This document shows, one piece after another, positions 2,714 to 34,615 of a stretch of 64,000 nt of DNA; the stretch's first letter is position 1; each line of letters begins with the position of its first letter. Source of the DNA: Massalongia carnosa (Eukaryota); NCBI GenBank assembly GCA_965645245.1, contig OZ287068.1, positions 1,674,001-1,738,000 of the forward strand, written 5' to 3'. The notes beneath the pieces are model-generated. The model saw only the letters and a program-made list of their open reading frames with translations. It was not told where the DNA came from and made no database searches. The translations under genes were made by a program, and so were the position numbers.

Positions 2714-4349
<1,636 letters not shown>

Positions 4350-4454
4350 TGTACTATCAAAGACTTTCTGGTTTTTGAGAATTGGACTCTGCAATGTCGA
4401 GTCCAAAGGAGGGGCTTTTCGGGCCGACGTTTTTACCGAATCTAGCTAACCACC

Positions 4455-5781
4455 CACGCGGGGGACAAAAAAAAAACTACACCAAAATTTAACCGGGTTC
4501 AACCCCCCACCAAAACACAAGCAATTTCCATACAATTTTGATGGGATAATCACCATTTCAACAACCAGTCATCCAATTCATTCAATCTATTCAATAACCA
4601 GTCATTTTACCCTCACCATCCAAAACAGCTCTCAATCTATCTGGCATAGTAGACACCCGTTCATTGATAAATGCCTGGGAAACGTTCGCCCACCCCTCAT
4701 AAATTAGCCCCTTGGTCGTATCATCATCCAATGAGGATATTTTTTTAAATATTGCTTCGGGGCCTGCCAGCAATTTTCTATGGGGGCCAAATCAGGTGAA
4801 CATGGACAGTTGAAATAGTGCTTCAGATCGTTGTTCTGCTTCCAAGTGCGTACAATGTTTGATTTGCCTGGTCCATGTCCAGAATCACCGTCTTCTTCTA
4901 AGACGAAATCGTGTTTTGCTTCAATCCAGGGCTTCACAATAGGCTCCAATATAGAGTCGATATAGACTCGTTGACTCATCTTTCCATTGGAGTTTCCAGG
5001 AACTCTGTAAAAGTAGATATCTGACTTGAAGTCATGACCTGCAGCAGCCCAACAGTGATGTCTCTTCTTGACGGCCTCGTCTGGTTCATCTGCTTCTTGA
5101 ATACAATCATGACAATAACGTTCACCTAATCTTCGTATGATGCGTAATTTGCCCTGAGGTCCCCATCCAAAGTGCACTTCGTCACTAAATCGAACTTGTT
5201 TCCAGTCTTCTGCATTTGGATATCTAGAAAGCATAGCATCTGACCACTTCATACGAAGCTTTCTTGTCTTCTCGTTCACCCATCCCTTTCTGCACGCAAT
5301 GCATTTGTGATAATCCATGGTGCCCATGATTCGTTGAATGGTTTTGCCACTGCAGTCTAGGCCTACTTCGAAGCCCAATTGCTCCCATGTAAGAGCGCGC
5401 GCCTCCATACCTTCTTCTTCCAATAGCCGTTCCATTTCTCTAATCAATTTAGGCGTAACAATTTTGTGACGCCCACGAGCTTCAGAAACATCGGAATTAT
5501 TATGATGACGGCGTGATGAGGCTCCTTCACGCAGGTATGCATAGCCCCTCGTACGTTCCACATCAAATGTGCGAAAAACATCCTCTTTGTGATAAGAAAT
5601 GCCTTGCTTTTCGCAAAATTCAACGGCTCCCTGAATTTTAGCTTTGGTAGGAGTCTCGATATGTTTAGAATTCATAATAATGATAATTATCCCATCAAAA
5701 TCGTATGTAAATTGCTTGTGTTTTGGTGGGGAGTTGAGCCCGGTTAAATTTTGGTGTAGTTTTTTTTTTGTCCCCCGCGTG
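4455..5781 (-). mobile_element. 1327-bp DNA transposon with Tc1/IS630-fold transposase, ~96-bp TIRs starting CACGCGGGGGAC(A)10 and a 5-bp TSD (CCACC)
   Basis: Left end 4455 CACGCGGGGGACAAAAAAAAAACTACACCAAAATTTAACCGGG is the reverse complement of the right end at 5781. CCACC occurs at 4450-4454 and 5782-5786. Confidence 0.93.
4591..5675 (-). pseudogene. DD37E transposase with one apparent frameshift near 4728
   Basis: FSDEVHF...LEEDGDSGH...SPDLAPIENCW. After YPHW the frame shifts; the other frame reads DDDTTKGLIYEGW...GKMTGY*, matching the C-terminus of the related element at 33 kb. Confidence 0.85.
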
Positions 5782-5916
5782 CCACCTAACTTATTACCCA
5801 CCAGGTACGTCAGTCAATGAAGCATTCATACACAGTTTTCCAGGAAGCTACAACAGATACCGCGCTTTCCTATCCTTCATCCCGACTATGACCCTTCGGC
5901 GATATTCAACTAAGGA

Positions 5917-6780
5917 ATGCTTCCACGATGTACCCCTCTTTTAATGAAGTTATCACCGTCAAGGCTTCCTTTACGTCCATCAAGCCCGTTTCATGCAGGG
6001 AAAATATCGAGGGATAGCACTACAGATCACTACAAAGCATTAGGTCTGGGTTTAAATGCCTCCTTGGGGGAAATCAAGAAGTTAGCCCTATGCTCTGTAA
6101 GCAAACCGAGCTAGTTGCCTTCTAATGGTCCAAGACAGTTTTATGCCTTGTCCAAAACACATCACCCAGACCATAATCGAAATGACCCCGGAGCGTCGGA
6201 TCGCTTCGTGAAGATCTCTGAAGCCTACGCTGTTCTTGGGAATCCTGCAAAACGTGAACAGTATGATCGAGACACAGGGCGACCGCTTGGAAGAAACCCC
6301 GCTCATGTACCGCGAGGCTCCCATTCGAGTTCCGGGCCTTACGGTTCCAGGCCCGCTAGCGGATTGAGCAGACGACGCACCCAATTCCGGGGCCCTCCAC
6401 CGAGCTTCTACCGCAACGGAGGTTGGGGATCGCAAGGGGCGAAAAGAGCTGCACAAGCGGACTCTACGGCGTCTTCCTTCGCTGGCGCTTATTCTCAATA
6501 CCCTGCTTCTGATATCAATAAGTCATCAACTATGGGTCCCGGTGGACCAAGCTGGATTAATGATGTCCCACATTTTGACCGCGGCAGACACTATCGAACG
6601 CAAGAGCAGCAGGAACAGAGGCGAAGGAGGCGGATGAAGGGAGATTCCATCGATGTAGGCAATGGTGGAAGTATCTTAATTAATTTCATGGTTGTGAGCG
6701 GTGTTATATCTGTCGCATTTTTGATATCTATGGCATACGAGAAAGATAATTTAGTAAAGCGAAGAAGGGATGGCTTGTAG
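5917..6780 (+). CDS. DnaJ (J-domain) protein with C-terminal hydrophobic segment, possibly mitochondrial
   Basis: DHYKALGL...EIKKQFYALSKTHHPD...FVKISEAYAVLG (HPD motif); intron 6081-6134; Arg/Ser-rich N-terminus. Confidence 0.88.
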
Positions 6781-7090
6781 CAAAGAGAAAGGGAATACGT
6801 CTGTGGAAAGAACCAGATCACCATGCATCCGGTAGTTCGTATATAACCAAATCTCTCAACTGGTGCAAGCCGTGGATGATCTACATAGGATCACTTTTTA
6901 TATAGATCTTGCGAGGGGTTGAATTGAAACCCCACGCTCCATGTACAGCTAGGTCGAATTAAAATCTTGTACAATGGATAAAGAAAACAGCATCTAAGAA
7001 ACTAATGGAGTTGAACAAGCTACATCTACCACCTCACATTGCTCTAACACAGACGTTTCCACTCAGGTTTTATGGGCTCCGGTAGTCAAC

Positions 7091-8358
7091 TCATCCCTCG
7101 AAAGTGAGACTTGCTCCAACCTAGTAGTGTCAATTGATTGCCCTCCTGTTAGATACGGAGCTACGCATACCTTATGGGCCGCTTCATTCAAGTTCTGGGT
7201 ATCAAGGGAAACCCCAAGTCCCACAGTCACCCCAGGCCGGAGCCGGATGTTATATGCTAAGGCCGCTATACCTCGATCGTTGACTTTGGCCTAATTTTCA
7301 AATAGATCGAGATGAGTAATCTGCGCAGGAGCCAGACTTGAAAGCATTACCTTGGCAAAAGATGTAGGATCAAGACGGTACTTGCTAGCAACCTCGAGAC
7401 CGACATTATTGCTGGCTTTTGAATCCCAAGTAGCTTTCCCACCAGCCTCAACCTCAGAATTGACTTTGTGATAGTAAGAGGCCGAAAACACGCTCAAATT
7501 ATTAGTCGCTGTAATTGCAGCACTGTAAGCAGGCGCTGTGTACCCAATAGCTGCGGAATATCTCGTGATGGCGGCCTTTTGTACATCGTATCCTGCCTCA
7601 GCGCCAACCAAAAATCCTTCATGTCCAAGAACCGCATCAACGTTGGCAGTGGGACCGTTCAGTACGTCGAAGAAAGCTCGGGTGTGAAAGTTTGGTTGCT
7701 TGAAATACAAATTGAGCTTGGCCCCAAACTTCTGCGATTTTGGCAGGAACTGAGTAAGCACTTCGGCTTTTAGACCCTTCGTAATATGATCCTCAAGTTC
7801 AAGTTTGGTGTCGAGGACATTGGCGTTGGTCCAAGCCTGGGTGAGAGTCAAGCCTGAGCATCAAATGATCATCAGCAATGGTGAATTCCAAAGAGTAGAA
7901 TGATTGCAATGATCCGCTTCACCAGATACATCACAGCTAAATGCGAAGAATGGACATATATACCAGATAACGCATCCGTGTATTTGGCTTCGATCTAATG
8001 CAGCTAAGTAGTCAACATGCAGTACTATAACTGGAAAGAGGCCTATTCTTGGGAATGCGAGAAAGGGAAACCGACTTGGCCGCCGGTATGACCTTCGTGT
8101 GAGGATTTGCCTTTGACATTGAAGCTGACGCCGTTGGGGGCTTTTGATTTGACATCAATATTGGCTGCGATCTAGTCAGCTTCATTCGCTCCATAGCAAG
8201 GCTTCGAAAAGGCTTTCTACTGGCTGCAGTATGGTAGAAGTCCTTGTTTAGGAGCTAAGATTTGGTGTATCAGCAGATTAGAGCACATCAATGACATCTC
8301 GGGCGCGACATACATCATTAGAGAGTTTAGCGATATCAGAAAAGGCTGGGATTGCCAT
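7091..8358 (-). CDS. POR1: Mitochondrial outer-membrane porin (VDAC), multi-exon
   Basis: MAIPAFSDIAK..LLNKDFYH, GLTLTQAWTNAN, GAEAGYDVQKAAITRYS, C-terminal VGASLTFEG*. Confidence 0.95.
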
Positions 8359-9876
8359 GATGATGAGTGCTAGATTTAATGTGGTTTTTTAGGAGGTCAA
8401 AGGTGTTCTATGGAGGAGGTTATATTTTCTTTGTAAAATATGACCACCCTTGTTCGGAAGCTCGTAAATTACCGAATACTTACGGAGTACTCCGTAGTTA
8501 TTTTCATTTCACAAGAGATATCAACAATGTATTGTTATAATTATATCTTTTTGCTAAAATGCTGCCGATCGCACCAAGACTTGGTGTAGATCAATGGAAT
8601 CTATGTCTTCGCAACCAAAATTTGCGAAGAGCTTGTTAAAGGCAACTTCAACAGTGGTGTATCCTAATGCTCCCATTTCTATGCCACGTGTATTAAAGTG
8701 AAAAACGTTTATTTTTACATTGCAGCCTTGTTGGGTAATTGACTATCATTCTTCCTATTTGACCCGATGTTTAGATACTGACTGAGGGACTGTCTTACTG
8801 CCATGCTGTAAGATATTTTACGCCGTCCAATGGTAATGGTTTATTATAACCACTCTCTACATGCAGGAAAAGTCGTCAATCCTAAGTTGACCTCTTGTTT
8901 CCTATTCAAATGGTAAAGCAGTGATTTACGGAACAGACCATAACTACCCACACAATAGAATAGCTAGCAACCGTAACCTGGAGTGGAACTTATTTGTTGA
9001 TCCAAATCTGTTTCGGAGTAATCGTCGGCTAGTCTCTCGCTTACCTCGTGCCGACTCGAGGCGTTCGCCTCTAGTCGGGGAAAGCAAAGTTCGGCGGAAA
9101 GCAAAGTACGTCTTTTCAACTTTTACACGCAAAAAGTCAATCAAATTTTTTCTACAAAGATCAAGCATGAAAAGTGTTATAATAGTAGTTATACTAATAA
9201 TAACCCAACTGCTCCTGAACATCATCCTCGTCGCTGTCGTCGACATCGTCGCCTACTTTCTCTTCCATTTCAAAGGCAACGAAGTCTTTTTGTTGACGAA
9301 TAGAATCACCTTCACCTATAAATCGTAGATTTTGATCACCTACAGTATCCATGATAAAGGTAGTCTCTGTCTCTTCCTCTTCATCATTGAATATATGAGT
9401 ATCTTTTACTCCTTTCTTCGTCTTTTTTTTGGTCTCTTCCGTCTGCCAAGTAATGTCGCTCGCCTTCCAAATGGCCTCAGGATCATCAATTGGAGTCAAC
9501 ATTTCATCGGATATGCTAACTCCCTGTTTTGCGAGGTCTTTAATATGTTTTATTCTGATCTTTTCATTCTTTCAAGCGATAACACCTTCCGCGTGTACAC
9601 TATCTCTTTTCATTCGCCATATTCTCATGAAGTTGTTATGCTCTCGTTTCTTTTCTATCTGCTCATCTTTTTGCTGTCTTTCAACAATTGCTCGTTGCGC
9701 ATCCTCCTTCGTGAGTCCTAATCCTCCGTCTATCGAGTAATTAGGTCTTAATCGCTTGCGAGAAGTTGCTCTCTGTAGTAATTCATTGCTTCTTCGCTCA
9801 TGATGAAGTGACAGTTCGAATTTCGTAAGCGTCGATTTGGCAACAACTTCCTTCGTATTACTCACGAATTCCTCTA

Positions 9877-11853
9877 ACCGTGCGACCGAGGTAAATCCGA
9901 TGGACCGCACCCGGAGCTACGCTCCAGGTGCGGCTCACCTCCATGACGCTATCATCTCCATGACGCTATCATCTCCATGACGCTATCATCTCCATGACGC
10001 ATTTTTAAAAATTTCTATCATCTATCATCAACCATTTATTATTCAACCATATCATGTCTGATTCGTACAAGAAACGAGAGGCTAACATTGCAAAGGCCTT
10101 AGATGCATTTGCAAAGAACACATACAAATCAGCCGCAGCCTGTGCCAAAGAATTCGATATTTCACCTCGTCTATTTCAAAGAAGACTACATGGATATAGC
10201 AAGCGAAAAGCAGTCAATATGAGGCTGTCTGCTGCACAAGAACTAGCCCTGAAGGAGTATATTGAATTTCTTGATGATATTGAATTATCAATGAGATTGC
10301 CATTGATTCGCGGTGCAGCTAATTATTTGTTGCAATTGCAACATCCTTCCTCGTCTTCATCTTCTCTCACCCGCGTAGGAAAATGCTGGACCGGACGATT
10401 CTTGAAAAGAAATCCCCAATTTTTCATGCAAAAAGGCAAGCCATTAGCAGCCGAAAGGAAAAACGCTCACAATGTTACGGATATTCAAACTTATTTCTCT
10501 TCATTTCAATCGACTGTAGCCCTTCTTGGTATAACTCCAGATGATATATGGAATATGGATGAGACAGGCTTTCGAGTTTGCTGTGGGGTAACCCATTTGG
10601 TGGTGACACTATCATCACATAAACGAATTATGATCGCTGATCCAGACAATCGAGACTATATAACTTCGGTCGAATGCATCAATGGAGTTGGCGGAAGCGT
10701 TCCATCCTTTTTGATTTTGAAAGGGGTCAACATACTTCACAAATGGGCCTTAGAGAATGATTTGAAAGATGATATCGTGTTGACTACAAGCGATAGCGGC
10801 TATTCGAATGATTGTCTAGCATTAGAGTGGTTAAAGCATTTTAATGCTCATTCAAAAAAGGTTCAAAAAGGAGCGTTTAGGCTTCTTTTGTTGGATGGAT
10901 ATGGATCTCATCTAACGTATGAATTTTGGGAATATTCGAAAGAAAATAAGATCTGTTTATTCAAATTACCCCCCCATTCGACCCATTTGACGCAGCCATT
11001 GGACGTTGGTGTTTTTCAGCCAATGAAACATTATCATGCTGAAGCGGTTGACAACGCCATTCGGTTGGGTGACGTTGACTTCAATCGTCTGGATTTTCTG
11101 GCCGCATTCAATCAATTTCGTACAAAGGCATTCAAATCATCTACTATCAAATCAGCCTGGGAAAAAACTGGGTTGATACCTTACAATCCGGAGGTAGTCT
11201 TGACCAAAATTCGTGCTTTAAATCCGGCATTACCACCACTACCAATATCATCTTCGGAGACAATAATCCTACCTCATACCCCCAAAAAGCCCAAAGACGT
11301 TGCTAAGGAAGGGGAAAACATTATTCAGCGAATGAATAATAATGAAGAAATTACTCCAGAAAGAATGCGACGTTTTATCAAAGGGTCGGTTGCAAACGCT
11401 AATTTACTAGAATTGACGCAACGCGACTTGCAAGCGCCACACACAGCTGCATTAGCTAAAAGGGCCCGAAAAAAGCTTGCTGGCACCGTTGTTCAGAAGG
11501 GAGGAATCGTTACCGTTCGAGATGTGAGGCACAATCACCTACATCGTACCCAAGAAGAGGTGGAAAGGGAGGAGGGTCGTCAAAAGCGTGCTGAGACGGC
11601 TAGACAAAAGAAAATATTTCTCTATGGAAAAGCGATAGCTAAACGGTTTGGCTTGGTGGGTAAAAAGGCCGAAAGCTGGATAGATGAACGTCAGCCTTTG
11701 CTTTTGAATAGCTTCATTTTGAAAGGGTCAATCAGTGGATATAATGTAAATAGTTTGAGAAATGCGTCATGGAGATGATAGCGTCATGGAGGTGAGCCGC
11801 ACCTGGAGCGTAGCTCCGGGTGCGGTCCATCGGATTTACCTCGGTCGCACGGT
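9877..11853 (+). mobile_element. Fot1/pogo-like transposon (inner, apparently intact), 1977 bp, 90-bp identical TIRs, TA TSD
   Basis: ACCGTGCGACCGAGGTAAATCCGATGG... at 9877 and inverted at 11853; TA at 9875-9876 and 11854-11855; 17-bp subterminal tandem repeats. Confidence 0.95.
10054..11778 (+). CDS. Fot1/pogo-family DD35D transposase (HTH/CENP-B-like plus DDE_1), 574 aa
   Basis: Uninterrupted ORF; WNMDETGF, LLLDGYGSH, then 35 residues to QPLDVGVF. Confidence 0.93.
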   Translation: MSDSYKKREANIAKALDAFAKNTYKSAAACAKEFDISPRLFQRRLHGYSKRKAVNMRLSAAQELALKEYIEFLDDIELSMRLPLIRGAANYLLQLQHPSSSSSSLTRVGKCWTGRFLKRNPQFFMQKGKPLAAERKNAHNVTDIQTYFSSFQSTVALLGITPDDIWNMDETGFRVCCGVTHLVVTLSSHKRIMIADPDNRDYITSVECINGVGGSVPSFLILKGVNILHKWALENDLKDDIVLTTSDSGYSNDCLALEWLKHFNAHSKKVQKGAFRLLLLDGYGSHLTYEFWEYSKENKICLFKLPPHSTHLTQPLDVGVFQPMKHYHAEAVDNAIRLGDVDFNRLDFLAAFNQFRTKAFKSSTIKSAWEKTGLIPYNPEVVLTKIRALNPALPPLPISSSETIILPHTPKKPKDVAKEGENIIQRMNNNEEITPERMRRFIKGSVANANLLELTQRDLQAPHTAALAKRARKKLAGTVVQKGGIVTVRDVRHNHLHRTQEEVEREEGRQKRAETARQKKIFLYGKAIAKRFGLVGKKAESWIDERQPLLLNSFILKGSISGYNVNSLRNASWR

Positions 11854-13186
11854 TAACTCCTGTTCCCGGACTGGATCACTCCATTGTGTATTATCGCGAA
11901 TTTTGGGTAGCCATTCAAGTAATCCTCTTTCAACATCATCAAACGTTTTAGGTTGAACTCGTGGCAATGTTGGGAGAGATAATGTTGGAAAAGAAGAAGA
12001 ATTATTCTCACTTTACGAAGGTACAAACTTCTTTAGCTGTTCAGTGCATTTCTTCTCATTAATAGGCCACATTCCAGATTTTTCAAAGGCAGATTGAATA
12101 GTGGATTTCTTGAATGTGTTATCTCGTATTTTGGTGAGATCTTGACAAAATCGAGTTATTGTATACTCTACATTGAACTCCACAATCGCATCTTGAATGG
12201 CCACATCATGCCAATGTTTATAAGGTTGAAACACTCCTACATCAAGCGGTTGCATACAATGCGTCAAGTGTGGTATCAAAGGATAAGGACGAATCCGGTT
12301 TTCATTGGCAAGCTTGATGAATTCAGGAGTAACATGACTACCGTGATTATCCGAGCATTAACTTCCAATCACTCTCAGATCCTGCATCAGAATTTTCAAT
12401 GTAATGTTGCAGATATGCAATCGCTATTTTATCCGATGTGAATCCATTTTCTGACGAAACAATTCGAGTTCCTTTAGGCAGTTCGTCTGCAAACTAATTG
12501 CTCATCATATCATGACCTTGTATGACAAGTAAAGGAGGTGGCGGATAATCACCGGCGGCGCGTTTATGTTCTCGAAAATGGTGATAGATTTTCTATTCTC
12601 AGGACTAATAGAATAATACTCCTTTACATCTGTTGGAAACAAAATTTCATGTCCCTTCATGCAGCCAACTCGAAAACCAGCCTCATCAAAATTGATGATA
12701 TTTCGTTTATTCTTGATATTCAGCTCTCGAAGAACCACCCGATAATCAGCGAACCATGCTTCAACGTCCTTCACTTGTCCCGCCGTATAGCGAACGACTG
12801 CTAGCGGTTTAGTCTTAATCTTATGTAAATGGTTGGATTTCCACCATGTTCTAAACCATCGCTTAGTAGGACCTTTATAATCAGCATTCTGACTTCGCTT
12901 CAGACTCTTGATCGCGTTGAATATCAGTTCATGCGTCGGTTGAACACCATATGTAAGTAACGAGCGAATGAACTCATGTATTGCTTTGATCTGATGCTTC
13001 TCCAATATCTTATTATGTCCTCCTCTCTTCTCGACTTCATTCGACGCGCTGTTTTGAGCAAGTGAACTTTGTAAAGTGGTACGAGGAATGTCAAATATGC
13101 GAGCAGCGCATATCTTGCTTTCAAGTGGATTTTCTATTAGAAACTGCTTAGCATCATTCAGACGCCTGACAGTATCATTACAATTC

Positions 13187-13232
13187 ATGATGATGATGAT
13201 GATGATGATGATAATAATGATAATGATGATGA
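13187..13232. repeat. (ATG/ATA)n trinucleotide microsatellite just upstream of the outer pogo ORF
   Basis: atgatgatgatgatgatgatgatgataataatgataatgatgatga. Confidence 0.8.
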
Positions 13233-13503
13233 TCAATAATGAAATAGTTGATGTAGTCAAAGGCGTCGTGTTGATGAAATGGAAATAAAATTGCGAAAAG
13301 ACGAACTTTGCTTTCCCCGACTAGAGGCGAACGCCTCGAGTCGGCACGAGGTAAGTGAGAGACTAGCCGACGATTAGCTGTAAAGGAATCTACTGGATAG
13401 TGTCTTGGCACGCTCAGGGTCATATAGGTCACGTGATAAAGTCTTAACTTAATCCACTTTAAGCCCTTCCCCTGGGCACCGACAATTTACCTTCTTTAAA
13501 GCT

Positions 13504-14756
13504 ATGCCCTCTCAAGTTTCGACAACGACTATAAAGCCCACTTCATCAGTCTCTTCCTACCAGACTACATCCAGCGTGGAAAATGACCAGTTCTTCTGGT
13601 CATACACCGAGGAACCACACCGAACAAGGAGACAAGCGATCATTAAAGCCCACCCAGAGGTAACCGACTTCCTGAAAACCCATCCACAGCCAGCGTAGTC
13701 TAACTAATGCAGTGTTTTAGGTCACTAAACTCTGCGGCCCAGAGCCCTTGACTAAATACTGCGTGATTGCAGTGGTTGCGCTGCAATTGCTCTGCGCCGT
13801 AAGTCTACAGAGTCAGCCGATCTTATCCCTCCCGTTCCTCCTTACGGCCTATATCATCGGTGCCACGGCAAACCAGAACCTCTTCCTTGCGATCCATGAG
13901 ATCTCTCACAATCTCGCCTTCAAGACGCCGATAGCCAACCGACTCTTCGCTGTCTTTGCGAATCTCCCTATCGGACTGCCGTACAGTGCTGCTTTCAGGG
14001 TCAGTAGCCCCTGAACCCTGTTTGTGCAGTTGATAAACTGTCAAGTTAACAACCTTGAAGCCGTATCACTTGATACATCACAAGTCTCTCGGAGTGGATG
14101 GGCTGGACACAGATCTACCTACTTCCCTAGAAGCACTCTTTCTAGACTCAGTCCTTGGAAAAGCTTTCTTCTGCACCTTCCAAATCTTATTCTACGCCAT
14201 TCGGCCCATGATGGTTTACCAGATTCCCCTGACCCGCATTCACATCTTCAACATCGCCACCCAGGTGTTATTCGACCTAGCACTACTACGGTACGCCGGA
14301 GCCAATGCTCTAGCCTACCTCATCCTTAGCTCCTTCCTGGCAGGCTCTCTGCACCCTTGTGCGGGGCATTTTATCGCGGAGCATTATGTGTTTGAGAAAG
14401 CGTCGAAAAGCCAACAAAAGCTGTCCGATGCTATTCCTGTGCCGGAGACTTTTTCGTACTACGGGCCGTTAAACATTCTTACCTACAACGTAGGCCTGCA
14501 CAACGAACACCACGATTTCCCTGCAATCCCGTGGACACGCCTGCCTGTACTGCATACAATCGCCAAAGATTTTTATGCCGACTTGCCCTCGCATCAGAGT
14601 TGGGTGTGGGTGATGTGGCAGTTCATCTGGGACAGAGAGGTGGGGCTTTGGTGTAGAGTGAAAAGAGAGAAGGGGGGAAGGAAAGTAGGCGGATGGTGCA
14701 AGGACGAGCTTGGCTCCAGTGAGAAACATGGGGTCCCTGTTGTTGGTGTTAAGTAA
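13504..14756 (+). CDS. DES1: Sphingolipid delta-4 desaturase (DES1/DEGS family), 3 exons
   Basis: FFWSYTEEPHRTRRQAIIKAHPEV; His boxes HEISHN, HLIHH, HNEHHDFP. Confidence 0.93.
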
Positions 14757-15324
14757 ACATTTATTTTAATTAGAGTAGCCCTAAAAAACCTGTCAGTTTC
14801 ATGGCTGCGGGTGTTTTTGGATGCCGTAGCATTTACGATGAACATCCAGATGATCTCGAACACATGTATTACAGACAAAGAAAATGATAGCTGCACGTGG
14901 GTCTTTGACATGCTGTTTACAACAGATAACAGGCTTTGATGGATTATCGTACAAGACACAAAGTGACAAGTAATGAAAATCATATCGGTGGCGTATATTG
15001 GATCGATCATGCGGGAACGCCCTCGAAGTAAACTATCTAGTGCAATCACGGCAATCATACCATGCATCCAAATATCTCGTAGCATCCGTAGCCTCCTCCA
15101 CTGTCCTAGGTTCGAGAGTGAAAATGAAGGCAACCGCAAGAGTTCTTGCATACATGATATCCGTGAATGAGAGACGCCTTCTTCACCCGAACGTAAAACC
15201 CAAGCAGCAGGTGGAATACCATGGTGTACCACCCAAACAGTAACACGAGCGAGTCCGCTGACCGTTCCTCTCTCGTTCTTGACAACTCTTTAGCTTTGGA
15301 TTGCCAATGCTTGGAGAGCGATTA

Positions 15325-16549
15325 TCAAAAGAAAAAGTACGCCAAGAGGAAACTCAGCAAGCATAATGCGGCGACGATCTGGACCGGCACACCATCTGCA
15401 GGCTGCTGCTGAATACCCATCCCTGTCATCCCGGTCGTAATGCGCTCCCTTGAATCTTGATTGATAGCATCGGATTTCTTCTGCGTAAGGCCCTGGTCTT
15501 GAACTTGCTTACTTAGCCTCGAGATTGTTGCTTTCGCCTCAGCTAATTTCGCTCGAAGATCATCTCCAGATGTTGGTATAGCATCCGAACCGTTCGATGC
15601 AGCAGCGCCAAGGGTTGATTGTGTATTCGATGCCAAGCTGTTCGCTGAATTATTTACGTCTTTAACATCTGTGTTGGTTAAAGGTCGTAAATTGCTTTGA
15701 GATGCCGATCCTACGGAAGTATCTACCGCATGGTGTACCGGCGTCACGACGTCAGGTGCAGGGGAGCCGAAAGAAGGTGCAGGTGACCCGTAAGCTGGGG
15801 GGGGGCCATCCACAAGATGCTGTCATAGCGTTCAGAATGTAGCAAGGTGATTTGGCTTGGGTAGCTTACATCTCCATTCACAGTTTCGTGGTTTGAGGTA
15901 GCCCTGGAGCTATCGGCTGGTAGGAAAACGACTCGAATCTTGCGCTCTTGAATAGCGGCTTTTGCAGTCTTTTCCACATTTTGCCACTGCATGACGTGAG
16001 CGTAGGTCACTTAAACATCGGAGCTACTCACGGTAGCTGCAATATTGGATAGATCCCGTTCAGGGGTGATAGCCACAGACTGGACGAGGAACTTATCCCG
16101 ACACCTTACGTCTAGCGGTGGGTCTTCTTTCATGGCTTGAAGGAGAACTTTGGGAGGCATTAGATACCGCATATATGACCGATATGAAGCACCTTCGTAC
16201 CTTGTACCTCAACTTCGCTACCAGGTTCAATTCGTCCAGAGTTGGGGCGGACACAGTATCTGTGAATTCATTAATGGCATAGTCTCCCAATTGCAAGCAG
16301 AACATACTGCTTCGGGGCTGTTGTTTTGACCTGAATACAATTAATACGAGCTGCGCAAGATTTCCACCGTAAATTAACTCACTTTGAATGCTATAGGGTC
16401 TGCGCCTGGATTGCGCAAACGCAGTAACTGGGTGACCTCATAGGTAAAGGGGCCTAGGAGAGTTAAGCGCATGAGCTTATCTAAGTCTACTAGAGAAGAC
16501 AGTGCATACGTCGAAACCAAAGCTCTGCGGGATCCAGTTGTACAGACAT
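15325..16549 (-). CDS. SCS2: VAP/Scs2-family ER protein (MSP domain plus C-terminal TM)
   Basis: MSVQLDPAEL..., AFKVKTTAPKQY, LLQAMKEDPP..RCRDKFLVQS, C-terminal GVPVQIVAALCLLSFLLAYFFF*. Confidence 0.92.
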
Positions 16550-17177
16550 GTTGGTGTTGATGAACTTCAAGATAGTGTTCGCGACTTCTTAACGATTTAC
16601 CGTTTTAAAGGATATAAGAGCAAGACGTAGCCACAACTACCCTCGTTCAGGACAATTCAAGAGCTTGTGAAAGATTCTATCAACAAGGTTAACGGAGGAA
16701 CAACGTCAAAGGGACGGTAGTAGTTGTTATATTTTGTAAGGTTGATTGTTGAACATGGCTGGGCAGAACGAATGTCATGGGCTTGGGTCTTTCGGGAGGA
16801 AAAGCCGTCTTAGCGGCTCCTGAGCACTCCGAAGATATCCCGAGAGCCTCCGAGAATTACCCGAGATATGACGTATGGTGGGGGTACCAAGGGGCAGAAC
16901 CAATACCACACCACACTATGCACACTAAAGCGTTGTCCATGGTTCTCTGGCTCATGAAAATGTAAAAAAGTTTGGGTTTTACTTTAAGTCTTTAACCAAT
17001 GGTTAAAGTATCATCCTTTCTCTCGATTTTTCACTGCAGCTGGATCAAATCGCATACACAAGGAACCCAGAAGTGATAGCTTCCTGCTACTTCGTGACGC
17101 CCCTAGAGCTTCTTAATCTTCAGTCCACGGTAGACTTTAATATATGTTATTAACGAAAATCGTAATCAGTAACAAAA

Positions 17178-18236
17178 ATGGGAGCTTCAGATATAGATGT
17201 GCTTCTGGACATGGGTTTTGACAAGCCTAGGGCAGAACTTGCCGTCAAGAAGACCGGCAGCAGTGAGTTTATTAAGTAGACACACTTGCGATGGTATTTG
17301 GCTTGCTAATTCTATGTCATAGTACAGGGGGCTATTGAGTGGTTAGAGCAAAATCAAGACAAGACTATGGAAGAAATCACAGCGAAAGCTGTCAATGATG
17401 AAACAGATCCATCCATAGAACCCCCTGCTCTCGCCGCTGGTGAACAAGCTCGGAGCTTGATATGCAATGAGTGTGGAAAGAAATTTAGGAGCCAAGCGCA
17501 AGCCGAGTTTCATGCCTCAAAAACAACCCACGTGGATTTTGCCGAGTCGGTTGAAGAGATTGCACCGCTCACCGAAGAAGAGAAGAAAGCTAAGCTTGAG
17601 GAGCTGCGACGGAAGCTTGCAGAGAAGCGAGCTGGTACCTCAGAGCAGGATAAGGCGGATCAGAAGAAAAACGAGGTCAGTAATGTATGTCTGTTGGGAT
17701 ACGCCCAAGTAAATTAACCAGTATAACAGGAAATAAGACGTAAAAGTACCAAGCAGACTCAAGACATCAAGGAAGATTTGCAGAAGAAGGAACAAATCAA
17801 AGAGGCTGCGGCTAAACGAAAAGAAAAGCAGGCAGAAGTTGCGGCCAAAGAGAGGATCAAGGCGAAAATAATAGCGGATAAAGAGGAGAGACGGCTAAGA
17901 ACCGAAAAGGAGAAAGCCGAACGTGAAGGTCGAGCTCCAGCACAAGCGCCTGCGGTGGCTCCAATGCCCACAACATCGGGACCTGTTGTGTCGAAGCCAG
18001 CGTCAGCATATACTGAGACACGGCTTCGACTCCAGACGCCAAGCGGCAATATTCAGAAATCTTTCTCGGTGGAAACTACTCTTTTTGAAGTTGCATCGCT
18101 TTTGGGTCAGGAGACTGGAATCGAAGTGCAGAGCTTTACGCAAAACTTTCCAAAGAAGGTGTTTGATTCAATCGATTTTGGGGCGACGTTGAAAGAGCTT
18201 GGGCTTGTGCCTAGCGCATCATTAATGGTGCTATAG
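17178..18236 (+). CDS. UBA / C2H2 zinc-finger / UBX domain protein (UBXN1-like), 3 exons
   Basis: LLDMGF UBA start, CNECGK...HASKTTH, coiled coil, ETRLRLQT...NFPKKVF...LKELGLVPSASL. Confidence 0.9.
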
Positions 18237-18478
18237 GGCAACATTAAAATTTTGACTCTCATCAATGTTCTTATATGTACGTATTGCAAAGTGCCGGGGG
18301 AGGTCTTCTTCTTGAAGACGAGTAATTATTGAAACGTGCGGTTGGCGCAAAAAGATTTTCATTTTCCCCCTTGTGGTTTAGCTGACATACTCTGTATACC
18401 GTGTATATATACTGTATTCGAGTTGAGCATATGAGGTCAAAGCAAAGCACCTTAAGACGCGTGTGGATGCCACACATA

Positions 18479-19817: not shown

Positions 19818-19988
19818 TAGTTTAGTACCAAAACCTCTTTTCCTTAAATAAATATTATGTGATTACGCGACTCGACAACATAAAAACCTAAACCTAATTA
19901 GCGCGTCATACCTCTTATCTATATGCTATTTACATCAAAAACAGAGCAGTTTGGTTGTCGTATTACTATAGCATAACATGGGTTTATA

Positions 19989-22073
19989 ATGCCAGAGTTA
20001 GTCATTCTACTCATCTTGAGAATGATAGCAACTAAATGAATGTAGCCCAGGTGATCAGCATAAAGGTGCCCGAACATCTCTCAACCCCTTCGAGGAGGTG
20101 AAACCACATATCAACGAATACACTGCAAAAGAGATAGCTACTCTTTCGAGCCGGCTGGAGAAGCAGTTGGGGCCGGAGTATATTTCGTCGAGACCAGGAG
20201 CTTCAGGGCAGAAAGTCCATTATTTGGCTGCGGATAAATGTATCAACTTGGCCAACGATGTATTTGGTTTCAACGGATGGTCAAGTGGGATACAAAATAT
20301 TCAAATTGATTTTGTGAGCTACTGAGTTAGGAATCATAATTGTCCCTTAAACTAAGTCTCCTTCAGGTTGATGAAAGCCAGAGCACAGGCAAGGTTAGCC
20401 TTGGTCTCTCCGTAATTGTTCGAGTAACTCTTCGAGACGGTACATACCACGAGGTAACGCGAGTAAAACGCCGTCGAAGCTGTATCAAGGCTAACGCTAT
20501 CTAAGGATGTTGGATATGGACATATTGAGAACTGCAAGGGGAAAGCTGCAGCATTCGAAAAGGCAAAGAAAGAGGGGACTACCGATGGTTTGAAAAGAGC
20601 TCTTAGGAATTTTGGCAACATGCTTGGAAACTGTGTATACGACAAGGACTACGTGTCGAAGGTCACGAAGCTCAAAGTTGCACCGGTAAGCATATCCTGC
20701 CTTGTAAAAACATGTATTGATGACACACTAGTCAAGATGGGACCCGGAGAACTTACATAGACATCCTGACTATGCCCCAATCAAAAAGGATCCTGTGGAA
20801 AGCCTTCCGCCAAAGCAAGAACGTGCACACATCAAAAACGAGCCTCCCTTGGGAGTAGAGGACGGATATCGTAATGATGTTTCAATGATAGGTAGGATTC
20901 GCTCCAAAATAGGCAGAAAAGCAAAGTTGACGATATGTAGCATCGTCCGAAGATGCTGAAGACGAGTTCGGTAGTAGGTACATTGAGTATTTTCATTCAC
21001 TTTGGTGAGGCTGATCATCTCAGGCGATGGATTTGATGAAGCCGACTTCAGTGTGGCTCAGCAAGAACATCCAGATGGTGTATTGCTGGATGCTTCCACA
21101 TCATCCTCAGAGTTCCTGCCTGGAGGTGGTTTCTTAAGGAGGGGTCACATACCAAATCCCCAAGGAGCGCATAGCCGCACCATGCAGTCGATGAGACCAC
21201 CCACAGCCCGAGCACATGCCGTAACTCGTAGGACCAATCCAGAACCTCATACTCCTTCAAAAGCTGTCGATTCTAGAGACCAAACTGCACAGGGCCAAAC
21301 TCACGGAGAGGCGGTTCCTCTCCCGCAGCATGGGCGAACGGACAATACCTGGCAATCAGTCACACCATTGCAACTAGCTCACAGTTCTTCGATAGGTGGA
21401 ACGGGAATATTACGATCAACCTCTAGCTCGCCACATAGACGAGGAAACCCACAGCCCCTCGATGTCGTTCCAGACAATACGCCCCCTTCCGTTGTTTCCA
21501 ACAGTGTAGAGCATGATCTTCCAATAGGCTTTTTCACAGCGCGAGCAGCCGAGTCCGTTCAGAACATGTCAGGCCTGCCATTGAAGCCTCCTGCGTTCAA
21601 CCCTCGTCTAGAGAGCCCTTCTATTCGCAAAACCGCTGGCGTGGACCACACGAAAACCAAACCGATGGAAAGGGAAGCCATCATAGCACTTCCTGGGGCG
21701 ATACAGCCGAGAAGCAACTTTGTCAATCCACAAATGGACAAGGCCCGACGGGTGGGCATGCCGGTTGTGGCAGCAAGTCCCCTACAGAACCGAAATCTAT
21801 ATAAGCCGCCCCAGATCAAGAGAGCGGCGGAGAAGAATGTGGACCAGTGAGTGTTTTTCGCTTTGCCATGGTCCTTCGGACTTGACCTGGCCAGCTAAGC
21901 TGAGCTAATGGTTGGCATATAGGAATCCGCGCTCTGCTCTCGGCGACGTGACAGCCGCAATGGTCAACGTTCCGTCAGAAGCGGGAGGGGATCCAAAGCG
22001 TCAACGGACAAGCATGGCAGGCGTGACGAGCGGCTTCAATCCCACAGCGATGAATGGGGTGGCAGGGACTTAA
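19989..22073 (+). CDS. RAD52: DNA repair and recombination protein Rad52, multi-exon
   Basis: MPDPGDQH start, [63 protein letters not shown]. Confidence 0.95.
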
Positions 22074-27320: not shown

Positions 27321-29575
27321 CTAATGACAAGTTTGCGCTCCCCCTTCATCTGTAAAGGAGTAAGGATTAGCCAACTGCATAAGCCCATTCAAGAAGCCTT
27401 ACTTTTGATCAGCTTGGCTACTGCTTGGATAAGGCTGATGCCCATGACCGCTGCCCCAAATACAACGCAAATCGCAGCTGGAACGGTTTTCCAACTTCGA
27501 CTGCTTAATTTAATATAACACAGTGGAGGGAGAATATAGGCGAGCGCGCAAGCGCTCGTGGCACCAATTAGCTCAAAGACTGCGCCGAGGTCACATGTCA
27601 TCAAAGATAATGTCATGGCCGTGACCACAAGAGACGTGGTGAAGATAAGATGGCGGTTCGGATTCCACCGCTCATCTGGGAACCAGTAGTTGGTCATAAC
27701 CTCGCGGCAGACAAAAGCCTCGAGCGGTAGCGTCGTCAGCATGTTGAGCCCAAAGCAGCTATATCAACATTAATGGATGTTCCCCAAAAGACCGAGTAGA
27801 CTCACAGGCGAGCAATATTGATCATGGTGTTGTCCGTGGGGAAGTTATTCAAGACATTTCCCTGCGTATTGTCGCCAAATGTTAAGAACCCAGCCAGAGC
27901 CATGGTTAGACAAGCGACCATCGAGATGAAGGTTGAGTAATGGGTGACCTTGGCGAACCGATCGATTGTTGGTTCTTTCAGGGAACCATAAATTAAGAGA
28001 CTGTTATGATCTGAGCGCTCGATTTAGCTACTGCATGTCAAACGAAGACTCTGGGCCACACACGGCATACGAACGCTGGTCGAGATTAATATGTTTTCTT
28101 GCGGAGAGGTCTGCAACTCCCTACCAAAAGATATGACGCCAATGGCTTGGAAGACACCACTTCGGATAAACAAGGAACCTGACAGATTACCCCGAAGGTC
28201 AGGAGCAACCGTTCTGCCCTGAACAATGACGCTAATAATTATAACAGACATGCTGATCAACGCCAGTGTAGATGCTTTCGCTAGCTAGTAGTCGTTAGTC
28301 TCGCGGTACCAAGCAGCCAGAACTGAGCCTAAGAACGTACTTTGGAAATGTCACGATAAAGAGAGAGAGGATAGGAGATGCCAAGGATGAAAAGGACTAT
28401 AACGGCTTGTCTATTGGTTAAAAGCCACAGGAAAGGGGTATTTGGTAAAGAAGGAAAAGCGGCCGCCATTACGTGTGGTATGGTGTCGCCGACAATAATA
28501 CAGAAAGCTAACATGCCACCAAAGGCACTATATGCAACACTGTTAGAGTTTTCCAGAAGGGATGGGGTATGATTTGCGTACAAAGCCCATTGGGCGACCT
28601 AAACCAGTTCATCAATGACCTAGCTAGATCACAAGGACAAGACACTTACGGAGATAGCAATTAATCCTGACTTGCCGAAGCAGTACTCTGTAGTAGCTTG
28701 AAAAGAATTTGCACCACTCAGTTTTGAGTTGATGACAATCAACTGAATAGTCCAGTCAACCTGCCCAGTAAAAGTCAGTATCATGCAAAGATCCCTCTGT
28801 CTCTTCTTAATTCACAAAGCATACCGTGAAAGTCAAAGCTACCAGCAGTATGATGGCCATCGTCAAGCCCGCCTGACGAAAAGCATATGGTTGACCTGCA
28901 TGGTATTGTCAGCCCCTTTGCGTAGCTTGACGTAAATAGGAAAGAGGTCTTCCTACCAATGATCCCGGCTCCACTGTAATGTCTATCAGTCTCCAAACTC
29001 TATCGACAACGACCTTTTCCCCCTTTTTCGGATAGGAGTTCTTACATGATGCTATTCGCCATATTCATGAACGCGCTCATCAACCCGCTTTTGGGGCGCG
29101 GGTTGTCCAGCAAATCCTCCACTTGCGAATCCAAACGGGAGTTGGCAACCGTCACGCTAGGGGCCTCGATATCAGTGAGCAACGGCGCCTGTTGACCTGT
29201 CCGGTTACCCCCGCGTGAAGAGAAGTAATCATCCCCCTCCCCTTCCTCTTCTGCTTCTTCTTCTTCTTCTTCTACTTTTTGTTGCACCATCCCCCGGCAG
29301 CTAACCACGACGTTGCGGAGCTCATGTTCGCTGCTCTGCCGCTCGGCAATGTCGAAACGGACACGATTGGGGGTTCGGGGTATGCGCGGAAGCCCGGGCG
29401 GCGGGGGGCGAGTGATGGAGGACTGGCGGCGAGGAGGGGGGGAGGGTCGCGTTGCGACGGGTGCGCCTACGGGGTAGTCGTCGTCATTCTCGGTAGACGA
29501 GCCTAGCAGCGGCTCTCGATGTTCGTCGCCTGCGGATTTGGGGTTTCGTACGTCCAACAAATGAGATTTGGACAT
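27321..29575 (-). CDS. Amino acid transporter (Aa_trans family, Avt2-like), multi-exon
   Basis: AFMNMANSIIGAGIIG, IIVGDTIPH, YPLSLYRDISK, TLPLEAFVCRE, LIGATSACALAYILPP. Confidence 0.9.
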
Positions 29576-32025: not shown

Positions 32026-32805
32026 ATTTCATAAAGGATCAAAAGCTACATCCAGAAATCGTCAATACCTTTAAAAAGGTTGACTTTAGTATATCTGCTG
32101 GAATATTGTTACGGCTCGACAAGCTTTTCCAGAGGAGGCTGGTTGCCTTGCTCGATCTCTCAAGTTGGCAGTCTTAGTAATGAGAAGACAGTGTAAAGAT
32201 AACAAAATATCTCAAGCAACAGACATCGTTTTCCCAATCAGCAACGTAGGCCACACGATTATGAAAATTCGAAAAAAATAATATGAATATTACGTAGGCT
32301 GAAGAGCAGTAAAAATCAAGCCAAAACAACGGAAAACGATATTAATTAGCAGGTTCCAAAGTCCAGCTTTCCCGACCAAAATTTCATGAACAAATTTGAA
32401 GAAAGAATGCGAGAAGCAGAAGGAGGCACTTTTTGTGAAATGATGCGTGTTGGAATGCTTGAAAGGAAAAGAAAAGCAAAAGAAAGCCATGGGTTTGAAA
32501 AAGAAAAGGGAGAGGTGGATCTATGGATATCAGCCCGAGAAGATGGCGCCACCTCATTTCTTCAGCTTCCAGGCTGAAAGATAACTAAAGGCTTGAGCAG
32601 ATCAATCCTTACTGGATGCAACCCTTGCAAGATGCCGTTCTTTCTCCGTTTGGGTTACTTGAATGGAGAGGCTTCATGTTGATACCTGACTTCGAGGATT
32701 TCACCCTTTATGTTCACTGCTCAGGCAAACGAGCTGATCTTTTGGTCGCTAGAAAAAAAAGCGTACTATAGAATACTCTTACCATTTCATTCACATTTAG
32801 GTACG

Positions 32806-34130
32806 CACGCGGGTGAAAAAAAAAAGGGCAAGGTGAGCCGAAATTCCCCCACTTTTCTTCCCTTTTTTCTTCCCCATCTTCTTCCCCATTCAACATTTCA
32901 ATTCGTATGACCATTGAAATTCTACATACATTCTATTCAATAGCCAGTCATCGCCCCCTCAGCCCTAATTACCTCTTCCAATCATTTGGGCATTGATCGA
33001 ACTCTTTCATTGATGAATTCATGCGTCACCCGTTCCCATTCATCCCTAATCAGCTGCTTCAAGCTGACATCGTCCCAATGAGGATACTTTCGAACATGCT
33101 GCTTCGCTGGCTGCCAGAAATTTTCTATAGGGGACAAATCAGGTGATGAGGCACAATTGAAATAATGCTCTAAATGATGATCTTCCTTCCATTTCTTGAC
33201 GGCATTTCTTGTCTTGCCCGTGCCATGACCAGAGTCTCCATCTTCTTCAAGTACGAAGTCATCCCCACGCTCCAGCCAGGGCTTGACGACGGGGTCAAGA
33301 ACGGATTCAATATACACCTGATGAGTCATTTTACCATTGCTGTTGCCCGGCACGTCATAAAAGATAATATCCGACTTGAAATTGTAGCCAATTGCAGCCC
33401 AGCAATGTTTTCGTTTTCGATCTTTCTCAGGAGGCGGGTCACGATGCTGTATGCAATCCCAACGATATCGTGTTCCGGGCTGACGAATGATTCGTAACTG
33501 TCCTTCCGGCCCATATCCAAAATGAATCTCATCACTAAATCGTACGCGATCCCATTGCTCCGGTTTGGGATATCTGGTCAGCATTATGTGAGCAAATTCG
33601 ACCCGTCTTTCCATAGGTGGGTCGGCCAGCCATCCCTTGACGCAGGCCAGACATTTCTCATAGTTTAGAGCAGCCGACATAACATTGTGCATTGTACGAC
33701 CGACAACGTCGGCCCCAATCTCCATAGCCAATTGTTCCCATGTGTATCGTTTTCCTTCCAACTGTAGCCCCTCATCTTGTAGAATGTGATCTGCCTCCTG
33801 TATTTGTGCTTCCGTGACTTTTGATTTGCGACCGCGTGTCTCAACGAGCGTTGAATGATGTCTTCTTCTAGAAGATGCTCCGTTTCGAATGATCTTATAG
33901 CCCTGTCTCTCGCTTCGAATGCCAAAATGCTGAAAAATCTCTCGAGGATCGATGGAAATGCCTTTTGCAAGAAGAAATTCATAAGCTCCCTGCACCTTGG
34001 CCTTTTGAGGTGTATCGTAGTGGGATGGCATTTGAAATGTTGAATGAGGAAGAAGATGGGGAAGAAAAAGGGGAAGAAAAGGGGTAAGTTTTGGTGGGGG
34101 GGTTTCTGCCCTTTTTTTTTCACCCGCGTG
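32806..34130 (-). mobile_element. 1325-bp DNA transposon related to 4455-5781, bipartite ~95-bp TIRs starting CACGCGGGTG(A)9-10GGGCA, 5-bp TSD (GTACG)
   Basis: GTACG at 32801-32805 and 34131-34135, directly abutting the inverted termini. Confidence 0.93.
32937..34031 (-). pseudogene. DD38E transposase with one premature TGA 15 codons before the natural stop
   Basis: FSDEIHF...LEEDGDSGH...SPDLSPIENFW; ...RSMPK*LEEVIRAEGAMTGY* with the internal stop at 32982-32984. Confidence 0.85.
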
Positions 34131-34615
34131 GTACGAAGTACTCCGTTATTCGTTTACCCGTTTTCGGAATTAGTTAACGTTAGCTTCAGGGGGAAACGCC
34201 ATAGAAAACTTGTATGCAGATTTTCATCTTCCAAGCCTACAGCCACGAGTTTCACTTCCCTCTCAGCAGAGACACCGTTAAATACTCACGTTAATTTCTT
34301 TCAAATTCCAAGCTAAGCTATCTTAACAACAGAATGATAGGAGAGAAAAAAACCTCAATTTTTGTATATGGCTACCGACGCCTATCTGCTACATGAAGCC
34401 CTGAACTCGTCCCTGTGGGCGGCCATTTGTTCCCAACAAGCATGAAACGCCATAATCCAGGCAACAACAAGCTTCCGCTTCAAGCAGCTTTTGCGTGAAC
34501 TTCTAGTCCACTTGCTAGAAGTCCTCCTGAGGTCCACTCTCAAACTTTTAAAAAAACATACAACAGGTCTGAAAGGAGGGTATAAGTTAGTTAGAGAGAG
34601 CCACCACACCCATTA

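Follow-up and report, generated by a model that had tools for sequence, protein, structure and literature searches.

Two related Tc1-like transposons were delimited in the window, that is, in the whole 64,000-nt stretch of Massalongia carnosa DNA that was analysed. Element 1 occupies positions 4455-5781 (1327 bp), with its transposase gene on the minus strand, and is bordered by the 5-mer CCACC, read directly at 4450-4454 and again at 5782-5786. Its first letters are CACGCGGG and its last letters CCCGCGTG. The first inverted-repeat arm (4455-4557) begins with CACGCGGGGGAC, followed by a run of A; over its 103 nt it is 94 % complementary to the second arm (5679-5781), which closes with CCCGCGTG. 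The transposase gene (4591-5675, minus strand; Met at 5675-5673, natural stop at 4591-4593) encodes a DD37E enzyme recognised by Pfam DDE_3 with E 1.7e-7. The frame carries a single lesion, the loss of 1 nt from the C-run at 4728-4729, whereas other contigs from public runs have an extra C behind 4727. Comparison with the intact 361-aa protein P0020, whose cluster comprises 42 sequences, gave identity at 314 of 316 and 45 of 45 residues for the two frames of element 1, which join at W316/D317.

Element 2 lies at 32806-34130 (1325 bp), its transposase likewise encoded on the minus strand, between two copies of GTACG (32801-32805 and 34131-34135). It has the same 8-nt termini as element 1 and arms that pair over approximately 96-103 nt: the arm at 32806-32901 matches its partner at 34032-34130 at 80.6 % over 103 columns, rising to 95 % in the terminal 22 nt. 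The gene (32937-34031, minus strand; Met at 34031, natural stop at 32937-32939; Pfam DDE_3 E 2.2e-10) is also damaged at one point only, by a premature in-frame TGA at 32982-32984, around which the translation reads RVRSMPK, stop, LEEVIRAEGAMTGY, stop. Relatives of this transposase are 365-368 aa long and have MTGY at the C-terminus. The catalytic residues of element 2 are D167, D264 and E303 (DD38E).

The preliminary description of two elements with common termini, different exact 5-bp repeats and no abutting TA was confirmed in its coordinates and in the 5-mers: TA does not stand directly beside either element. The inverted repeat cannot gain one more base in either, so the boundaries cannot be shifted, and two exact 5-mers would arise by chance with a probability of about 1e-6. 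The two transposases were also correctly described as aligned along their length and diverged, with 171 of 317 residues identical (54 %, E 3e-127) and the quoted motifs present. The window contains five occurrences of the octamer CACGCGGG, where 0.93 would be expected, and 0 of 100 shuffles reached this count; four of the five are the termini of elements 1 and 2. The fifth, at 29210-29217, was considered as another terminus and rejected as a chance match inside an unrelated ORF. No further copies or MITEs of either element were found elsewhere in the window.

In a comparison of positions 3500-20500 with public runs, contigs from four runs covered element 1 at 99-100 % identity, with no differing letter in the listed contig pieces of runs X7, X8 and X9. 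Together with the intact P0020, these contigs point to recent activity. The summed word depth of element 1 relative to its flanks was approximately 170x in run X6 and 40x in X7; this figure is not a copy number and was therefore taken only as a hint of repetition. Among the joints listed for the four runs none spanned 4455-5781, as an empty site of element 1 would. In runs X8 and X9 about 0.47 of the sampled words were present, and these runs were considered as flanks lacking the element; the idea was dropped, as their contigs proved to cover only element 1 itself, with no flank cover seen. Run X6 also contained short-sided joints (side of 20-29 nt), e.g. from 5772 to 9016, and nothing related was found at 9016.

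Three further members of the superfamily lie in the window. The pogo/Fot1-like element (9877-11853) and the DD34E Tc1 element (18479-19817) are flanked by TA, as previously described; the same statement could not be upheld for the DDE_1 fragment (around 12016-13320), whose inverted ends are not detectable. Contigs of runs X7 and X6 connect 9874 to 11854, and the 1979 bp skipped equal the pogo-like element plus one TA, i.e. they reveal its empty site.

Elements 1 and 2 are Tc1/IS630-type DDE transposons according to Pfam, to a profile match with Sleeping Beauty (SB) and to the predicted fold. Pfam PF13358 (DDE_3) scored 31.6 and 41 bits on the two window transposases (cut-off 28.6), and HTH_Tnp_Tc3_2 reached 26.3 bits on element 1, under its cut-off of 31.5, and is a precomputed assignment on many relatives; no Pfam domain besides these two was found in the window transposases. 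A profile of 40 family members matched the catalytic domain of SB100X (5cr4) with E 1.2e-17, through to the C-terminus. For the AlphaFold2 model of the transposase (pLDDT 75.3, pTM 0.53) the top Foldseek PDB matches were full-length Mos1 chains (4u7b_A, E 2e-9) and the SB catalytic domain (5cr4_A, E 1e-8, TM 0.67 by target), in agreement with the RNase-H-like fold and N-terminal helix-turn-helix region of Mos1 and SB. The triad (D167, D264 and E303 of element 2) is at least 90 % conserved in the 40 sequences, and the second D is separated from the E by 37 residues in element 1, 38 in element 2 and 37-41 family-wide. Scores of 59.6 and 46.9 bits for the bacterial IS630 equivalog NF033545 of NCBIfam, whose cut-off is 100, indicate homology, not membership, and identity to the window's own DD34E transposase is only 23 %. 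The elements of the family measure 1254-1803 bp, inside the 1.2-2.4 kb expected of the group, and one transposase ORF lies between their terminal inverted repeats. At E 1e-30 the family profile reached 470 clusters (50 % identity), which may include other Tc1-like proteins, and the ESM Atlas returned generic Tc1-like clusters only. The family is widespread in fungi, mostly Pezizomycotina.

The insertion products of this family were examined at 80 metagenome loci encoding related transposases. Inverted ends of at least 18 nt were present at 42 of them, the other 38 contigs being too short or the copies decayed. Twelve of the 42 were dropped (5 that duplicated the same insertion and 7 in which an end was truncated, unclear or at the contig edge), and the 30 remaining loci together with the 2 window elements gave 32 insertions with both ends readable. 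At 10 of the 30 loci 1-3 nt were trimmed off the BLAST-defined repeat by a uniform rule taken from other elements, which places the start at C[A/T] and the A-run 12 nt further in. An exact 5-bp duplication was found in 21 of the 32 insertions; one insertion had 6 bp, one 7 bp, one matched at 4 of 5 positions, two were offset by 1-2 nt and six showed no duplication. TA on both sides was seen in none. Without the trimmed loci the duplication was still exact in 11 of 20 loci and in both window elements, and shifting the boundaries abolished the signal save for a geometric echo at shift 1. The terminal starts of the relatives included CAAGCGG, CTCGCGG, CAAGCTG, CAAGGCC and CTCCATC, with the C[A/T] start and an A-run from 12 nt in as common features; CACGCGGG, proposed earlier as the terminus of the lineage, holds for both window elements and is merely one variant among the relatives.

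Elements 1 and 2 are thus best explained as cut-and-paste transposons of a large fungal IS630/Tc1/mariner family whose ends are joined 5 bp apart and not at TA, a reading held with considerable confidence. The earlier claim of a Tc1-fold lineage making variable 5-bp duplications in place of TA stands for both elements of the window and extends to relatives whose proteins are only about 40 % identical. In an exploratory tree, built from query-anchored translations of partly decayed copies and rooted on the window's DD34E element, 5-bp-duplicating elements appeared in most main ingroup branches. Two relatives nested among the 5-bp clades of this tree, L008 and L022, have different termini and TA on both sides; no 5-bp repeat was found in them at symmetric offsets of -3 to 29 from their repeats of 17 and 15 nt. 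They may be TA users or simply decayed copies.

The stagger might instead be flexible between 5 and 7 bp, or differ in length among subfamilies, with 5 bp merely the commonest outcome. An exact 7-bp repeat in L025 (CAAGGCC subfamily), an exact 6-bp repeat in L027 (CTCCATC subfamily), a 6-mer offset by 2 nt in L026, a 5-mer offset by 1 nt in L005 and CCATG offset by 2 nt at a 79-bp MITE in L013 would all fit such flexibility. It is nevertheless considered unlikely, since duplications of exactly 5 bp are spread over the tree, whereas each deviant was seen only once, among the most diverged subfamilies, and could also be due to small junction indels.

A second alternative is that the ends are moved in trans by an unrelated 5-bp enzyme (Transib-, Ginger- or integrase-like), the Tc1-like gene being a passenger. 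Termini starting with CAC are typical of Transib, although its RAG1-like transposase has roughly double the length. Transib also generates 5-bp target duplications (PMC1131882), and the present transposase is tied to these ends by sequence association. Against trans mobilisation, every subfamily, with protein identity as low as about 40 %, combines the Tc1-like ORF with the C[A/T]NG...A-run ends, the element size is constant (1.25-1.8 kb) with a second ORF absent, many fungi keep intact ORFs and the ends are similar to the impala/mimp consensus as given in PMC5579170; this explanation appears highly improbable. On a third reading, the 5-mers match by chance or belong to a constant portion of the element, true insertion giving TA or no duplication. 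This reading retains at most the small yet non-zero probability that a whole-genome scan would leave to the two window copies, and it is excluded by the 21 exact duplications among 32 insertions (P about 1e-51 with a generous per-site chance allowed), which comprise 20 different 5-mers (GTACG twice, at unrelated sites), by the lack of TA on both sides in that set and by the inverted repeats, which do not extend into the window 5-mers.

Joining 5 bp apart, the preferred reading, is accompanied by a weak palindromic target preference, TA-N-CCWGG-N-TA, derived from 56 distinct end flanks. T was found at -8 in 31 of the 56 flanks, A at -7 in 33 (C in 1), C at -5 in 28, C at -4 in 33, A or T at -3 in 38, G at -2 in 32 and G at -1 in 29. 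The P values of the consensus positions ranged from 2e-5 to 3e-8, save for W at -3 (0.01). The target had been thought sequence-tolerant: the 5-mers are indeed variable, but the significance of the palindrome speaks against full tolerance. The TA steps lie outside the 5-bp duplication, one base beyond each cut.

The segment just past the second catalytic Asp is a candidate source of the altered stagger. In the 40 sequences EED[G/N]DSGHG is nearly invariant and is followed by a Gly-rich insert of 3-7 residues, variable in length, in place of the D-N-D-P-K-H of Sleeping Beauty; the D-E distance of 37-41 residues is due to this insert directly after the second Asp. Residues 266-271 form a low-confidence loop in the AlphaFold2 model. 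In SB, K248 adjoins target DNA in a model and its substitutions abolish integration, and Tc1 groups without K248, Impala among them, have A at position 246, as stated in passages of PMC6943129. The 5-bp family has D at SB position 246 and G at 248, which matches neither dyad presented in those passages. The rebuilt loop belongs to a region reported to be near target DNA in SB, adjacent to it in the SB target-capture model, and we infer that it underlies the 5-bp stagger.

In the mechanism proposed, a transposase of approximately 365 aa, with a Tc1-type helix-turn-helix region and a DDE domain with 37-38 residues from the second D to the E, would recognise inverted ends that start with C[A/T]NG and have an A-run from position 13. 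The two transposon ends would be joined to target phosphates 5 bp apart, preferably at the weak palindrome, and gap repair would then turn the stagger into a duplication of 5 bp whose sequence varies. The stagger would be set by the encoded enzyme itself, probably through the family-specific segment past the second Asp. On one reading, each protomer may still read or bend a TA, the active sites having moved apart. To our knowledge, every characterised relative differs from this family in its joining. The broader proposition, that a species-rich ascomycete clade of Tc1/IS630 fold gave up the 2-bp TA stagger for an undescribed 5-bp stagger at TA-N-CCWGG-N-TA, with the rebuilt Gly-rich loop as the likely cause, is put forward tentatively, at somewhat less than even confidence.

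Duplication of TA is the hallmark by which textbooks, classification schemes and annotation pipelines recognise IS630/Tc1/mariner elements. In PMC4188875, for example, complete elements are defined by TA target-site duplications, and software based on such duplications will mis-bound or mis-classify elements and MITEs of this family. The same fold with a different stagger offers a close comparison for how a DDE dimer sets the distance between its strand-transfer sites. So far as we are aware, this question has been approached mainly across unrelated superfamilies. If the proposition is true, the family would be a natural system for studying the determinants of stagger length in DDE transpososomes and a possible source of Tc1-type vectors free of the TA rule. 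Since near-identical copies exist elsewhere, as do intact reading frames, cloning and testing of an active element seem feasible. No description of a Tc1-like family with 5-bp duplications was found in the full-text literature, a search that lay apart from Repbase and Dfam.

Among known systems impala of Fusarium oxysporum is similar: a Tc1-like element of about 1.3 kb encoding a 340-aa transposase (PMC5579170, which names GenBank AF282722 for the sequence) with DD37E spacing (PMC7325037). By description only, impala resembles the 5-bp family in being a Tc1-like element of Pezizomycotina, about 1.3 kb long and DD37E. Impala and mimp differ in that TA is given as an obligatory target in PMC3599309, whereas none of the 32 insertions had it on both sides, and the A246 assigned to the Impala group in PMC6943129 contrasts with D246/G248 here. 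Tc1/Sleeping Beauty (DD34E) and Mos1 share the fold, the catalytic triad, the paired-type DNA-binding region and the single ORF between inverted ends; they duplicate TA, as does the window's DD34E element, and lack the D-E spacing of 37-41. Tc4 (TNA) and Zator (3 bp), which belong or are related to IS630/Tc1/mariner, also depart from the 2-bp TA rule, yet their 3-bp duplications are centred on T..A, in contrast to 5 bp with the TA steps outside. In PMC7386202 Zator is given the rank of a superfamily of its own within the group. Transib, which likewise makes 5-bp duplications, is distinguished by its enzyme, as the present family is DDE_3/Tc1-type by Pfam, PDB profile match and fold and not RAG1-like.

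Element 1 occupies window positions 4455-5781 (1327 bp) and element 2 positions 32806-34130 (1325 bp), each carrying one gene on the minus strand. Element 1 starts with CACGCGGG and ends with CCCGCGTG, and the 8-nt termini of element 2 are the same. The inverted arms of element 1 comprise 103 nt with 94% complementarity, and those of element 2 pair at approximately 80% across about 100 nt. CCACC directly flanks element 1 on both sides and GTACG does so for element 2; in neither element does the inverted repeat extend into the flanking 5-mer, and no TA abuts either of them. The positions, termini, exact flanking repeats and lack of abutting TA reported in the preliminary description were all re-read in the sequence, confirming that observation. 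The window contains five copies of CACGCGGG, where 0.93 would be expected; 0 of 100 shuffles gave that many, and four of the copies are the termini of elements 1 and 2. The fifth was considered as another element end and rejected, as it falls within an unrelated ORF.

Both transposases match Pfam DDE_3 above the cut-off, and element 1 also gives a sub-cut-off match to HTH_Tnp_Tc3_2. The two proteins share 54% identity over 317 aligned residues. A profile of 40 family members matched the SB100X catalytic domain (5cr4) with E 1.2e-17, up to the C-terminal ...TGY, and the best PDB matches of the AlphaFold2 model (pLDDT 75.3) were full-length Mos1 and the catalytic domain of Sleeping Beauty (SB); the match to the bacterial IS630 model was under its cut-off. 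The catalytic triad of element 2 is D167, D264 and E303, and the D-E spacing corresponds to DD37E in element 1, DD38E in element 2 and 37-41 family-wide. Each gene carries a single lesion. In element 1 one C is missing from the run at 4728-4729, the extra C being present in contigs of other sequencing runs, and its two frames match 314/316 and 45/45 residues of the intact 361-aa database protein P0020. In element 2 a single in-frame TGA (32982-32984) is followed by 14 in-frame codons leading to MTGY and the natural stop.

To these elements a word-indexed search added 359 relatives, the named hosts of which are Pyrenophora, Botrytis, Colletotrichum, Orbilia, Pseudogymnoascus and other Pezizomycotina; full-length relatives have 360-375 aa and the C-terminus MTG[YWH]. 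The family profile run against 1.84 billion cluster representatives gave 470 matches at E <=1e-30 and 4085 at E <=1e-10. The sequencing runs containing window DNA are labelled as lichen metagenome or coded organisms, and the rest of the window carries ordinary fungal housekeeping genes.

The preliminary description had inferred a Tc1-fold lineage that duplicates 5 bp instead of TA and had suggested tabulating the flanks of further copies. For this purpose 80 metagenome loci encoding relatives were sampled, 42 of which had inverted ends of at least 18 nt. Twelve of the 42 were left out: five as second or third copies of one insertion (L011, L041, L052, L074/L077, L078), others because an end was missing, at the contig edge or unclear (L010, L016, L034, L035, L042, L053). 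The remaining 30 loci and elements 1 and 2 gave 32 scored insertions. The family termini vary (CACGCGG, CAAGCGG, CTCGCGG, CAAGCTG, CAAGGCC, CTCCATC), but all begin with C[A/T] and have an A-run that sets in 12 nt from the start, and these two features were used as the boundary rule for all loci. The rule cut 1-3 nt off 10 loci in which a self-complementary flank had lengthened the BLAST match.

An exact 5-bp duplication was found at 21/32 insertions and TA on both sides at 0/32. One insertion each had a 6-bp duplication, a 7-bp duplication and a repeat matching at 4 of 5 positions, two had a 5-mer or 6-mer repeat offset by 1-2 nt, and six had no duplication. Chance as the source of the 5-bp repeats is excluded (P ~1e-51); the signal was lost on moving the element boundaries of the 32 insertions, except for a geometric echo at a shift of 1. 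The 21 exact duplications comprise 20 different 5-mers. The tabulation supports both the inferred lineage and the variable sequence of its repeats. In an exploratory FastTree tree (90 rows, rooted on the window DD34E element, four loci with <60% coverage dropped) the 5-bp elements occur in most of the main ingroup branches.

Several loci depart from this pattern. L021, L037 and L012 encode full-length relatives with good inverted ends and no duplication; on the left side of L037 and L012 a 5-mer matching the far flank lies 9-12 nt further out, in L037 as the reverse complement, a pattern suggestive of rearrangement or of recombination among copies. L008 44-1469 (49% identity, from a marine sample) and L022 181-1592 (43%) have short inverted repeats (17 nt in L008, 15 nt in L022) whose cores read ...CACCAAAA; both are bordered by TA at either end and lack a 5-bp repeat. 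The two could be members that use TA, nested within the family, or their ends may have decayed. L013 carries at 240-318 a 79-bp MITE with family termini, consisting of two termini back to back (CACGCGGTGAGC... / ...GCTACCCGCGTG) and separated by 60 bp from a full-length relative downstream; the CCATG repeat that flanks it shows a 2-nt offset on the left side.

The weak palindrome 5'-T A N / C C W G G / N T A-3' (slashes mark the cuts) was obtained from 21 reconstructed empty sites and, identically, from 56 distinct end flanks. In the latter, T occupied position -8 in 31/56 and A position -7 in 33/56 (C in 1/56 only), followed by C at -5 (28/56) and -4 (33/56), A or T at -3 (38/56) and G at -2 (32/56) and -1 (29/56). 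The P values for the consensus positions range from 2e-5 to 3e-8, with 0.01 for the central W. The TA steps of the consensus lie one base outside each cut. Target capture had been described as apparently sequence-tolerant, which holds for the duplication itself, variable in sequence, but not for the site, which is non-random. Altogether the results support 5-bp duplication as a property of the family as a whole, and its target has a defined consensus.

The same window contains elements that use TA. A pogo/Fot1-like element at 9877-11853 (DDE_1 and HTH_Tnp_Tc5, 589-aa open frame) has TA flanks and arms of 92 nt that are 100% complementary, the flanking TA counted in. Among the contigs of public sequencing runs X6-X9 placed on positions 3500-20500, those of X7 and X6 join 9874 to 11854. 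The omitted 1979 bp equal the element plus one TA, which makes this a true empty site and the insertion polymorphic and probably recent. A DD34E Tc1-like element at 18479-19817 (402-aa open frame, strong HTH_Tnp_Tc3_2 and DDE_3 matches) also has TA flanks, and its transposase is only 23% identical to the 5-bp family. Its summed contig depth was the highest within 3500-20500, so this element family is probably very abundant in the host fungus. These two elements show that the method and the genome give canonical TA behaviour for other superfamily members. The earlier statement that all three other superfamily members of the window show TA was verified for these two; the third, a DDE_1 fragment, has no detectable inverted ends. 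The sequence around the pogo-like element (9045-9875 and 11856-13320) is itself repeated, the unique X6 contig ending at 9045 with depth rising. It includes a second DDE_1 fragment (12016-12357) and a 271-aa frame (12508-13320), with no inverted ends detected, and resembles a cluster of nested, older transposon remnants.

Contigs of four runs cover element 1, the pieces listed for X7, X8 and X9 having no differing letters. The X6 unique-flank contigs end 25 nt inside element 1 at both ends, as expected of an assembly graph meeting a repeat. The protein of element 1 belongs to a cluster of 42 member sequences and that of element 2 to one of 30; cluster sizes and contig coverage together point to a multi-copy, recently active family, contig depth not being equivalent to copy number. 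Contigs identical to element 1 (window 4468-5782) also occur in X8 and X9, which bear the labels of two other organisms (C and D); this may reflect the same fungus in the samples, a close relative or spread of the element between hosts.

For the duplication to be 5 bp long, the two 3' ends of the transposon must attack target phosphates that lie 5 bp apart rather than 2. The family-specific feature nearest the chemistry is the segment after the second catalytic Asp, EED-[G/N]-D-S-G-H-G and, behind it, 3-7 inserted residues rich in Gly, where SB has D-N-D-P-K-H without an insert. In the AlphaFold2 model it forms a low-confidence loop, and after the insert most members have a conserved Lys or Arg. 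According to PMC6943129, K248 of SB adjoins target DNA in a target-capture model, its substitutions permit excision without integration, and Tc1 groups lacking K248, including Impala, have A at 246. The family residues at SB 246/248 are D/G, neither of the reported dyads. The rebuilt loop could shift the target position relative to the active sites, and the TA steps flanking the target may be contacts that were kept, or sites of bending.

In their available text, surveys covering Tc1-like elements of fungi or of DD37E type give TA as the only duplication, or found no such elements in Ascomycota (PMC4188875, PMC2836289, PMC9977792, PMC10379824, PMC5630946). Full-text searches of a literature collection with few subscription journals found no Tc1-like family with 5-bp duplications, and one may already have an entry in curated repeat libraries such as Repbase Reports or Dfam. 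The closest named element, matched by description and not by sequence, is impala. Its spacing, as given in PMC7325037, is DD37E as in element 1, but PMC3599309 describes impala as requiring a TA target, whereas the present family makes 5-bp duplications.
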